Positions 205-1,021 of a stretch of DNA of 1,761 bases are shown here, in pieces. Source of the DNA: Escherichia coli (lineage in GTDB: Bacteria > Pseudomonadota > Gammaproteobacteria > Enterobacterales > Enterobacteriaceae). The stretch lies in assembly GCF_003334315.1 (NCBI RefSeq), contig NZ_QOWR01000113.1; one strand, given 5' to 3'. Each line of letters starts with the position of its first letter. Positions within the stretch are counted from its first letter, which is position 1. The notes under the pieces are model-generated. The model had not been told where the DNA came from. It did no database searches and saw only the letters and a list, made by a program, of their open reading frames with translations. The translations under genes and the position numbers were made by a program.

Positions 205-615
205 GATGTTTGGCATGATGATTCATATGGAACATCATCAATTGATATTACTGGCAGTGGAGATCTAATATCATTAGGTGGTCATGCAGGACTTGGCGTT
301 GCGTTTGCTAAAAAGAAAGGTGAAATGTTATCTGATATTTGTATTTATGCTACAGCATGCGGACATGCAGGAATTGGTGGTGGGATAAATGCGGCTATCA
401 CATATTCTGAGACCAAGTCTTTACCTACATCGGGAGTCAGCAATTCAGTAGGTGTAACGGTTGGAGGCGGAGTTGGGGGGCATTTTGCGTATACTTATGT
501 AGTGGATGTTGATAATCCAGAATCATCGACAGAATCTGTTGGTATCGGTGCAGGTGTTGACGCTTCAGTTATGACTCTGGCTTGTAGAACGTGGCAAGAA
601 TGCTGGGTCAATTAA
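205..615 (+). pseudogene. 5'-truncated C-terminal domain of a polymorphic toxin (most likely Rhs-CT), glycine-zipper rich; upstream part replaced by IS1
   Basis: Frame 1 is open from the IS1 junction (205) to TAA at 613-615. The first ATG is at 325 and has only a weak, badly spaced SD, so the frame appears to continue from a larger upstream gene. Translation [136 protein letters not shown]. A small putative immunity gene follows 11 nt downstream and an H-repeat element lies further on, the classical Rhs arrangement. The Rhs core motif itself is not in the window. Confidence 0.5.
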
Positions 616-616
616 C

Positions 617-622
617 AGGAGG
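617..622 (+). promoter_or_regulatory. Shine-Dalgarno sequence (AGGAGG) for the downstream lipoprotein gene
   Basis: aggagg at 617-622, 4 nt upstream of ATG 627, and immediately after the toxin-domain stop codon (tight coupling). Confidence 0.55.
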
Positions 623-626
623 AAAT

Positions 627-812
627 ATGAAAAAATATATATTTTTAGTTTTATTTTTATTGTGTGGTTGTTCTCCAGTGGACATAGAGCCAGCTAGACA
701 AGAAGTTAATATCTTTCGTGGTTTATATCAGACAGGGAAATACAGTGATATATATAAAATCACTTCAAGTGATTTTCAGACTGCCACATCTGAAAAAAAT
801 TTATCGACATAA
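627..812 (+). CDS. Small lipoprotein-like protein (61 aa as read), candidate immunity protein for the upstream toxin domain
   Basis: ATG at 627 with a strong SD. N-terminus MKKYIFLVLFLLCGCS has a basic n-region, a hydrophobic core and a lipobox-like LCGC. Very AT-rich, immediately downstream of the toxin domain. The ORF-track start at 591 is rejected (no SD, overlaps the toxin ORF). The stop TAA at 810-812 overlaps the next ATG. Confidence 0.55.
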   Translation: MKKYIFLVLFLLCGCSPVDIEPARQEVNIFRGLYQTGKYSDIYKITSSDFQTATSEKNLST

Positions 813-1021
813 TGAACGAAGCAAAAGAAAAAGATCTTGGGACTTATAAAAAATCAACCCTTAAAACTGAAAAAATCACTCGCGGATTATTTTCAAACGA
901 TGAAATTACATTGATATATTTCTCAGAATATTCAAAAAGAATTGTCCAAGAGGTTTTTGTGTTTAATGTTGAAGACAAAAAAGTAAAATTAAAAGGTTAT
1001 AGGTATGATTCGATTAATTAA
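812..1021 (+). CDS. Hypothetical Lys-rich 69-aa protein; possibly the C-terminal portion of the preceding lipoprotein gene, separated by a frameshift
   Basis: ATG 812-814 overlaps the upstream stop (TAATG). No independent SD. The same frame is open back to 794, inside an A7 tract (793-799). Composition matches the upstream ORF. Confidence 0.4.
   Translation: MNEAKEKDLGTYKKSTLKTEKITRGLFSNDEITLIYFSEYSKRIVQEVFVFNVEDKKVKLKGYRYDSIN

Follow-up and report, generated by a model that had tools for sequence, protein, structure and literature searches.

A decayed Rhs toxin-immunity module beside an IS1 end, almost certainly from an Escherichia coli RhsE-locus T6SS effector

The window examined here, a stretch of 1,761 nucleotides, almost certainly carries, in decayed form, the toxin-immunity end of an E. 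coli RhsE-locus T6SS effector. Both halves of the pair, toxin and immunity, are inactivated in this copy. From position 205 to position 1761 the window differs from E. coli CP53 by a single synonymous base (99.9% identity), many other E. coli genomes match it likewise, and positions 205-615 form the 3' end of an annotated RHS core protein in CP53; therefore, the frame is not a chance ORF. RefSeq names exist for both genes ('RHS element core protein' and 'RHS element protein dsORF-e4'). This kind of module, an Rhs toxin tip with a lipoprotein antidote, is well known in E. coli, and the present copy is an ordinary one. We consider our explanation as a whole probable, but less secure than the identity of the locus; its most tentative part is that the decayed pair derives from a periplasm-acting, membrane-perturbing toxin with a predicted Vap-type barrel.

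The IS1 border and the truncated toxin gene

Every element described in the original prediction is present in the window, with slight corrections to some coordinates:

1-204, minus strand: IS1 left end, its terminal inverted repeat finishing at 204, with the 5' part of insA reading leftwards from 149
205-615, plus strand: 3' fragment of the Rhs (RhsE-locus) effector gene, encoding the last 136 of 144 toxin-domain residues, with the stop codon at 613-615
617-622, plus strand: Shine-Dalgarno sequence AGGAGG of the immunity gene, read from the sequence
627-812, plus strand: 5' part of dsORF-e4 (signal peptide, lipobox LLCG/C and first helices); a frameshift ends the ORF after 61 aa
793-799, plus strand: run of seven A (A7), a 1-nt deletion relative to the A8 allele, from alignment with locus L002
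812-1021, plus strand: 3' remainder of dsORF-e4, a separate 69-aa ORF that lacks a signal peptide and covers residues 63-131 of the intact protein
1043-1141, minus strand: old IS1-family transposase remnant, by RefSeq annotation in 20 of 20 E. coli loci retrieved
1247-1351, plus strand: group II intron fragment of the domains 1-4 type (Rfam RF01999, 63.5 bits against a gathering threshold of 36, full model length)
1469-1761, plus strand, running off the window: 5' part of ydcC, the transposase gene of ISEc5 (ISAs1-family 'H-repeat'; NCBIfam NF033564, 89 bits; RefSeq)

The left end of the window belongs to IS1, with both the terminal inverted repeat and InsA present. The reverse complement of positions 1-204 starts with GGTGATGCTGCCAACTTACTG..., the IS1 left terminus, and the InsA N-terminus is encoded on the minus strand from 149 to 3, where it matched the NCBIfam IS1/IS1595 Zn domain (NF050000, 42.8 bits) as well as NF033558. 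The toxin frame had been thought to start exactly at the IS1 boundary. This holds for the toxin-coding part, which begins at 205; however, a TAA at 187-189 leaves the frame open from 190, 15 nt inside IS1. It had also been proposed that IS1 removed the region upstream. Because the window begins within IS1, a simple IS1 insertion, with the rhs core persisting beyond the element, is equally possible. If the insertion was a simple one, the far side of IS1 would hold an rhs core ending in the 9-bp duplication ...GATGTTTGG; otherwise an IS1-mediated deletion or rearrangement would be indicated. No copy of the exact 41-nt junction of IS1 with the toxin sequence was found in 5426 complete E. coli genomes, among the GTDB species representatives or on JGI metagenome contigs.

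The intact parent of the fragment is an Rhs protein. Positions 205-615 correspond to positions 6001-6411 of locus L001, the end of a 1402-aa RHS core protein (WP_122056947.1) located downstream of vgrG, and uninterrupted homologues, which the original prediction had proposed to look for, likewise show this segment to be the toxin domain at the C-terminus of an Rhs protein, about 1400 aa long and linked to VgrG. The frame holds no ATG, GTG or TTG ahead of the ATG at 325, in agreement with its earlier description as a glycine-rich 136-aa C-terminal domain without a start of its own; glycine makes up 16% of the full 144-aa domain. In the L001 protein the core-end motif (PxxxxDPxGL type) occupies residues 1249-1258, and base 205 falls at codon 1267, 8 codons on, so that the anticipated DPxGL-type motif does lie just upstream, with DPLGL ending 24 nt before the equivalent of position 205. 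NCBIfam RHS_core (NF041261, 2768 bits) spans residues 1-1258 of the intact homologue, including the YD repeats, and ends at DPLGL. This RHS/YD core is missing from the window, since IS1 abuts base 205, and with IS1 standing 8 codons past DPLGL the toxin fragment is left without core, cleavage site, delivery domain or start codon. The vgrG gene, which is not visible in the window, was found directly upstream of rhs in 20 of 20 E. coli loci retrieved.

The locus otherwise has the composition and surroundings of other E. coli Rhs elements. GC content is 63.5% in the core, 41% in the toxin domain and 28% in the immunity gene, and a drop of this order from core to toxin domain to immunity gene is classical for Rhs elements. 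With the E. coli Rhs elements and PAAR-Rhs T6SS effectors of the RhsE locus the present module shares its setting, vgrG-rhs...ydcC-pptA-nhoA-nar, a GC-rich core that gives way to an AT-rich toxin domain with a small ORF behind it, the DPxGL boundary and a linked H-repeat (ISAs1). An H-repeat had been predicted downstream here as well, and it is represented by ydcC from position 1469. The present copy differs from these elements in that IS1 parts the toxin from the core and the downstream ORF is frameshifted. The group II intron fragment lies outside the toxin module.

The lipoprotein gene, its frameshift and its pairing with the toxin domain

The stop codon of the toxin fragment and the ATG of the lipoprotein gene at 627 are separated by 11 nt (616-626). 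The strong Shine-Dalgarno sequence and small lipoprotein gene reported within this distance are both there, with AGGAGG at 617-622 and a lipobox behind the ATG. The encoded N-terminus reads MKKYIFLVLFLLCG/CSP, with the lipobox LLCG/CSP; lipobox calls were made by inspection. The lipobox cysteine and signal peptide are kept in 13 of 13 aligned orthologues, with C15 invariant in all of them, and a signal peptide with a lipobox-like motif is present in 4 of 4 distant homologues. The immunity protein has no TM helices past the signal peptide, and it belongs to the NTF2-like proteins (DUF4019/DUF3887; Pfam E-values of only 2e-4 to 4e-3).

The immunity gene had been expected to survive in this copy. 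Instead, a 1-nt deletion (A8 to A7) splits it into ORFs of 61 and 69 aa, which correspond in CP53 to WP_000759878.1 (627-812) and WP_001001073.1 (812-1021), whereas other strains carry the intact form as a single 131-aa ORF (WP_000759875.1). Across 616-1021, the missing A in the run at 793-799 is the sole difference from L002. The toxin-immunity pair is carried by 1366 of 5426 complete E. coli genomes, about a quarter, O157:H7 among them; the exact A7 sequence was found in 498 of these carriers and the exact A8 sequence in 838. The rhs gene was intact in 7 of 8 A7 genomes sampled and in 3 of 7 A8 genomes sampled. In the first five genomes an intact rhs seemed to go together with a broken immunity gene, but this wider sampling weakened the trend; we claim no such association, given how few the genomes are and that they are not independent phylogenetically. 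A frameshifted immunity gene accompanying an intact rhs, as in those seven A7 genomes, is awkward for a potent toxin delivered among kin.

The pairing of toxin domain and lipoprotein extends well beyond this copy. In Salmonella enterica subsp. salamae, the same toxin domain and lipoprotein occur both on a full Rhs protein and as an orphan; a Logan assembly contig carries an orphan pair, and in Kluyvera intermedia an intact lipoprotein gene adjoins a degraded toxin domain. Four relatives of the toxin domain at 25-46% identity, one of them from a Pseudomonas, each have a homologous lipoprotein behind them, with precomputed DUF4019/DUF3887 matches in three of the four cases. From E. coli and Salmonella to the Logan contig, Kluyvera and the four distant relatives, a small immunity gene downstream thus varies together with the toxin domain. 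Spacing between the two ranges from 8 to 80 nt, and is 8-12 nt in all but one of the loci examined. The proposed toxin-immunity pairing therefore withstood comparison, since the lipoprotein stays beside the toxin domain across genera and at 25-46% identity, as expected of a cognate immunity gene.

Predicted fold and proposed action of the toxin

The toxin domain gave no match in Pfam, even at E<=10, in NCBIfam or in a PDB profile sequence search, and the literature and libraries searched give neither a function for it nor an experiment on it. The family is rare: among 1.84 billion representatives a full HMMER scan found only 23 proteins, and searching again with a broader profile brought hardly any more. 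A structural model built from 13 sequences (pLDDT 79) is all-beta except for one short N-terminal helix, and its best structural matches are non-enzymatic barrels. AFDB models of the toxin domain superpose (TM 0.94), and similar folds are predicted at the ends of many Rhs/YD proteins in other phyla. On these models the domain is predicted to be a small Gly-rich, closed beta-barrel of eight strands, of the type known from the Vap proteins of Rhodococcus equi (which we take to be Pfam R_equi_Vir), where the strands run in the order b1-b2-b3-b8-b5-b6-b7-b4. Sequence homology to the Vap proteins was sought and rejected, as hhalign comparison with VapA, VapB, VapD and VapG gave a probability of 0.2%, Pfam gave no match and the PDB search returned no Vap; therefore, we claim a resemblance at the level of the fold only. 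Four cysteines of the toxin domain are conserved, and their positions satisfy 54+141 = 60+135, as expected of an antiparallel strand pair; one relative that lacks both C60 and C135 keeps C54 and C141.

In Rhs effectors, a YD-repeat shell encloses the C-terminal domain, which is freed by self-cleavage after the DPLGL motif. For strains with an intact locus we infer a similar course. The Rhs protein of about 1400 aa, encoded after vgrG, would hold its last 144 residues within the shell, and self-cleavage after DPLGL would free the toxin domain once the T6SS spike reaches a neighbouring cell. The freed barrel, predicted to be stapled between strands b3 and b8 by two disulfides (C54-C141 and C60-C135), would then most likely act from the periplasm by binding and perturbing a membrane, so that the permeability barrier or the proton-motive force is lost, and not by catalysis. 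Under the E. coli +2 rule for lipoprotein sorting, a serine at +2 directs the protein to the outer membrane; since dsORF-e4 has such a serine, its expected place is an outer-membrane anchor on the periplasmic side. There the NTF2-like lipoprotein would bind the toxin before its target is reached and so protect the producer. The toxin is acidic (pI 4.5), against a pI of 8.6 for the immunity protein. The Cys lipobox retained among orthologues and distant homologues of the lipoprotein, together with the conserved Cys positions of the toxin domain, speaks for action in the periplasm. VapA offers a precedent for the proposed activity, as it binds to liposomes, makes them permeable and neutralises the pH of vacuoles (PMC10100859). 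However, VapB is far less membrane-active than VapA (PMC10100859), so that the Vap fold alone gives no guarantee of membrane activity. Precedents for immunity located at the outer membrane against membrane-active T6SS toxins are Sip6 and Tli1 (PMC6889166). We put forward a periplasm-acting, disulfide-stapled, membrane-perturbing toxin tentatively, as the likeliest mechanism but a reading slightly closer to doubtful than to probable.

A toxin acting in the periplasm might instead be an enzyme or a ligand sequestrator, directed at peptidoglycan, lipid II or the traffic of lipoproteins or LPS. The conserved residues speak against this: relatives at 25-35% identity do not conserve H62, D111 and E118, and only C, Y, G and S occupy invariant columns, Gly most of them, with no catalytic signature. 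Neither Pfam, NCBIfam nor the PDB sequence search assigned the domain to an enzyme family, and the non-enzymatic nature of the top structural matches points the same way. We regard this alternative as unlikely.

It is also conceivable that the truncated pair is still active, as an orphan reserve in which the fragment is expressed from a hybrid promoter at the IS1 border or from the ATG at 325 (a 96-aa in-frame ORF), and full-length immunity protein arises by a -1 slip or by RNA polymerase slippage. A -35-like TTGGCA in the IS1 inverted repeat does stand 17 nt from a TG-extended -10-like CATGAT (191-219), but promoter-like sites showed no enrichment over shuffled sequence (7 found against 5.5 +/- 2.7). 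The A7 allele puts a classical X_XXY_YYZ heptamer in frame, with positions 794-800 reading A_AAA_AAT in the frame of the ORF, from which a -1 shift leads back to ...SEK(K/N)FIDIM...; moreover, A7 persists in several serotypes among its 498 genomes, mostly with an intact rhs. Against this, a run of seven A is short for efficient slippage and no stimulatory frameshift element was identified. The fragment, for its part, has no core, cleavage site or delivery domain, the sequence to its left offers no core-coding homology through which recombination could rebuild a full rhs, and a cytoplasmic 96-aa fragment would be unable to form the disulfides. Continued activity of the pair is thus very improbable. 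That the toxin is cytoplasmic (nuclease- or NADase-like) and the lipoprotein an unrelated neighbour is scarcely credible, even though many E. coli Rhs toxin domains are nucleases (reviewed in PMC6730261), given a lipoprotein within 8-80 nt of the toxin domain at every locus examined, including the 25-46% relatives in other genera, the predicted all-beta barrel with its conserved Cys pairs, and no match to a nuclease or other enzyme family.

Relation to known toxins and wider meaning

The toxin domain is unlike the studied E. coli Rhs-CT1, CT3 and CT5, which are a metallopeptidase, an REase and an RNase (PMC6730261), and it is without a Pfam or NCBIfam model. With Ssp6-Sip6, Tse5-CT/Tsi5 and the CdiA-CT ionophores it shares the proposed outcome, perturbation of the membrane from the periplasmic side, and a Gly-rich sequence, and Tse5 sets a precedent for a pore-forming Rhs tip (PMC10684867). 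No sequence relationship to Ssp6, Tse5-CT or the CdiA-CT ionophores was found, however. Those toxins are described as helical or glycine-zipper membrane inserters, countered by TM-helix immunity proteins (Sip6 has two predicted TM helices, PMC6889166), whereas the domain described here is all-beta in its model and is paired with a soluble, lipid-anchored NTF2-like immunity protein. A glycine-zipper helical pore former was also considered and set aside: GxxxG spacings are present, but the model is all-beta and the immunity lipoprotein lacks TM helices. The Vap proteins differ as well. They are virulence factors of actinobacteria, secreted through Sec and directed at the endolysosomes of the host, whereas the present domain is an Rhs tip delivered by a T6SS; no cysteine occurs in the three solved Vap cores that were aligned, whereas the toxin domain has two Cys pairs; and the Vap literature searched gives no immunity partner, whereas the toxin domain has a cognate lipoprotein.

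NTF2-like immunity families occur in polymorphic toxin systems. Among the NTF2-like DUF4019/DUF3887 proteins, the subfamily found here is distinguished by its lipoprotein anchor and by its tie to one toxin family in the loci examined. In the literature searched, no paper ties DUF4019 to immunity, and nothing relevant was found on dsORF-e4, on dsORF with Rhs, on VapA with Rhs, on R_equi_Vir or on a group II intron with H-rpt. The supplements of a structural survey of T6SS effectors (PMC11148199) mention neither Vap nor DUF4019.

Two broader readings go beyond the module itself, and we hold them, taken together, to be on the unlikely side. In the first, the toxin domain may be the E. coli member of an unrecognised, phylum-spanning superfamily of polymorphic toxins with a Vap-fold beta-barrel. 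These would form the tips of Rhs/YD proteins and at least one CdiA-like exoprotein, and NTF2-like periplasmic lipoproteins would neutralise at least those members that sequence searches can detect. In the second, which is the less likely of the two, the widespread A7 allele may be read through by a -1 slip on its heptamer, in which case immunity would be low.

The present copy is a further example of the decay of Rhs toxin modules driven by insertion sequences and slippage. The family is more useful than this copy, as the pair occurs in so many complete E. coli genomes while its toxin has no Pfam or NCBIfam model. Should the superfamily prove real, the R. equi Vap proteins would either be related to interbacterial membrane toxins or have converged on them. 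If the Vap-like barrel is membrane-active, it would add an all-beta, disulfide-stapled class beside the mostly helical T6SS pore formers, and the toxin with its antidote would offer a tractable bacterial system in which to study membrane disturbance by Vap-type barrels, a question that also concerns R. equi virulence.

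The RhsE locus and the IS1 border

We mapped positions 205-1761 to the RhsE locus by megablast against 5426 complete E. coli genomes. The order of this locus is vgrG, rhs, a small ORF, an IS1 remnant, ydcC, pptA, yddH, nhoA, yddE and narIWH. In the alignment with strain CP53, 205-1761 has one base different, a synonymous change. Six features lie ahead of ydcC in the window:

1-204, minus strand: left end of IS1 (terminus sequence and InsA model matches)
205-615, plus strand: toxin-domain fragment of rhs, the 3' end of the CP53 rhs, with its stop codon at 613-615
627-812, plus strand: 5' part of dsORF-e4, a 61-aa lipoprotein stub
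812-1021, plus strand: 3' part of dsORF-e4, a 69-aa remainder with no signal peptide
1043-1141, minus strand: old remnant of an IS1-family transposase, limited to its C-terminal part, between dsORF-e4 and ydcC
1247-1351, plus strand: group II intron fragment, matching Rfam group-II-D1D4-2 (RF01999) over its full length

CP53 carries, 3' of a VgrG gene, a gene for a 1402-aa "RHS element core protein" that ends in the 205-615 sequence. The NCBIfam RHS_core model spans residues 1-1258 of this protein, ending at DPLGL, and base 205 falls in codon 1267, 8 codons past the motif. The original prediction had proposed looking for a core-end motif just upstream of the equivalent of position 205, where it was indeed found, and had placed an H-repeat downstream as in Rhs loci; this element is ydcC (ISEc5, ISAs1 family). 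The rhs core has 63.5% GC, the toxin domain 41% and the gene after it 28%; a stepwise drop of this kind is the composite layout classically seen in Rhs elements. In E. coli 120899 (L017) and O91 RM7190 (L021), a second RHS core gene lies 3' of the H-repeat, replacing pptA; therefore, the RhsE locus can hold tandem rhs genes.

The left terminus of IS1 was read as the reverse complement of 1-204 and begins GGTGATGCTGCCAACTTACTG. Positions 149 to 3, translated on the minus strand, gave the InsA N-terminus, which hit the IS1/IS1595 zinc-binding domain and IS1 transposase models. By ORF listing, the frame of 205-615 is open from 190, is preceded by a TAA at 187-189, inside IS1, and has ATG 325 as its first in-frame start codon. 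The frame codes for 136 residues of a toxin domain that in its complete 144-aa form is 16% glycine. Sequence reading and ORF listing thus confirmed the predicted layout of a start-less, glycine-rich frame at the IS1 border followed by a Shine-Dalgarno sequence and a lipoprotein gene. Since the window begins within IS1, either a simple IS1 insertion, with the rhs core still present beyond it, or a deletion of the core may have produced the border. IS1 was present at this position in none of the 5426 complete E. coli genomes, and the 41-nt IS1/toxin junction had no match in GTDB species representatives or JGI metagenome contigs.

ATG 325, with AAAGGTGAA ahead of it, is in frame for a putative 96-aa product (325-615, plus strand) that includes both cysteine pairs of the domain. 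Enterobacter mori carries, under the annotation "hypothetical protein", a 96-aa product (P0016) that begins at this Met. A hybrid promoter-like site of consensus-like sequence (191-219, plus strand) crosses the IS1 border and is directed into the toxin fragment. Its -35-like TTGGCA lies within the terminal repeat of IS1 and, after a spacer of 17 nt, the fragment supplies a TG-extended -10-like CATGAT; the count of promoter-like sites in the window was not above the expectation from shuffled sequence.

Downstream, the IS1 remnant at 1043-1141 is annotated at the same site in all E. coli loci retrieved. Together with the IS1 at 1-204, it indicates that the locus has been hit at least twice by IS1-type elements. 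The group II intron fragment (63.5 bits, E 5.6e-12; gathering score 36) lies between this remnant and the H-repeat transposase gene. Group II intron remnants were reportedly described in E. coli H-repeat/Rhs DNA in the 1990s; the literature searched held no paper on them.

The lipoprotein gene and its frameshift

The toxin stop codon is followed after 11 nt, with AGGAGG at 617-622, by ATG 627, whose product starts with the signal peptide and lipobox MKKYIFLVLFLLCG/CSP. Homologues of this lipoprotein occur in E. coli, Salmonella enterica subsp. salamae, Enterobacter and Kluyvera. In one Salmonella genome the gene lies 3' of a full-length Rhs with the same toxin domain, in another 3' of an orphan fragment of that domain; a Logan assembly contig likewise has it 3' of an orphan toxin domain, and in Kluyvera an intact gene sits beside frameshifted toxin-domain remains. 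Relatives of the toxin domain are rare (only 23 among 1.84 billion cluster representatives in a full HMMER scan), and the Rhs DPxGL motif precedes the domain in every relative examined that is long enough to show the upstream part. Four relatives of 25-46% identity, one from a Pseudomonas, are each followed by a small dsORF-e4 homologue. All four homologues have a signal peptide and a lipobox-like Cys, and three have precomputed DUF4019/DUF3887 hits. Such synteny is as expected of a cognate immunity gene, and the toxin/immunity pairing originally proposed is upheld across genera and in these distant relatives. With a pI of 4.5 the toxin domain is acidic, and with one of 8.6 the mature lipoprotein is basic. 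P0007, from a Logan assembly contig, is a 231-aa chimera in which the N-terminal part of a fimbrial chaperone (PF00345) runs directly into toxin-domain residues 29-144; it presumably arose by rearrangement in some E. coli.

The immunity gene had also been predicted to survive in the window; however, it is split by a one-nucleotide deletion. Elsewhere dsORF-e4 is one 131-aa ORF, annotated "RHS element protein dsORF-e4". Here the run of eight A (A8) at 793-799 is short by one, the sole difference in this stretch from L002, a strain with the single ORF. The lipoprotein ORF therefore stops at 812, leaving the 61-aa stub, and a second ORF overlapping the stop codon (TAATG) encodes the signal-less 69-aa remainder. 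Among 1366 complete genomes carrying the region, 498 have the exact A7 sequence and 838 the exact A8 sequence. Hosts of A7 include O157:H7, O55:H7, O91, O45:H2, O111:H8 and pig isolates. In small samples that are not phylogenetically independent, an uninterrupted rhs of about 1400 aa was present in 7 of 8 A7 genomes (L001, L004, L010, L021-L025), including O157:H7, O45:H2 and O111:H8, and an intact rhs in 3 of 7 A8 genomes (L002, L003, L016-L020), the other four having independent nonsense or frameshift mutations. The sampled genomes have one immunity gene copy each. In the ORF frame, the A7 run (794-800) reads A_AAA_AAT, a heptamer of the classical slippery type for -1 frameshifting. Slippage by -1 at this point would give back the complete lipoprotein, altered by no more than one K-to-N change.

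Predicted fold and possible mode of action

The toxin domain had no match among Pfam families (threshold E<=10), NCBIfam models or PDB sequences. In a 13-sequence family alignment, C54, Y56, four glycines and S119 are invariant; most columns that are nearly invariant hold Gly, the others being K44, P82, D109 and C141. AlphaFold models made independently for this domain gave a TM of 0.94 on superposition, and similar folds end Rhs/YD proteins of many genera and a CdiA-like exoprotein (Foldseek, AFDB50). The predicted fold resembles that of the Rhodococcus equi Vap proteins, but the sequences are unrelated: Vap membership was rejected by hhalign (probability 0.2%) against VapA, VapB, VapG and VapD, the last three collected by a PDB search seeded with a VapA sequence that was validated by its match to VapB (E 5e-62). 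Because of the unusual Vap strand order (b1-b2-b3-b8-b5-b6-b7-b4), meander barrels superpose on only six of the eight Vap strands, as the VapD paper reports (PMC4118825). In the toxin domain, cysteine positions 54 and 141 have the same sum as 60 and 135, the register of an antiparallel b3-b8 pair, and in one relative C60 and C135 are both replaced, with C54 and C141 retained; both observations fit a Vap-type order.

VapA binds liposomes, makes them permeable and neutralises the pH of phagosomes, VapB being much weaker (PMC10100859), and VapD has a detergent-binding, glycine-rich "bald" patch (PMC4118825). By this fold analogy, and with no catalytic residue set standing out in the 13-sequence alignment, we tentatively suggest, at a little under an even chance, that the toxin domain is membrane-active. 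The main rival, a periplasmic enzyme or ligand-binding toxin, seems unlikely, and a helical glycine-zipper pore former was rejected as a class. Every immunity homologue bears a lipoprotein export signal, and the cysteine pairs are conserved; these two features argue for action in the periplasm. In the membrane-active reading, the Rhs shell would carry the 144-aa domain on a VgrG spike, and self-cleavage after DPLGL would free it in the target-cell periplasm. There, two disulfides would lock the barrel, a glycine-rich and partly hydrophobic one that may bind and perturb a membrane. The periplasmic lipoprotein would capture the toxin, thereby protecting producer cells.

State of the window copy

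The toxin fragment in the window has neither core nor start codon and is also without the cleavage site and the delivery domain, and no core-coding sequence is left of it within the window for recombination with a full rhs. Residual function of this copy, including the -1 slip option, is very improbable. Intact homologues show every testable defining feature of the Rhs/T6SS polymorphic toxin class, of which the module is a member. Its genes are already named in RefSeq; the literature searched holds no account of the toxin domain, which has neither a Pfam nor an NCBIfam model. The locus encodes an uncharacterised Rhs toxin domain, and the copy in the window represents its ordinary decay.
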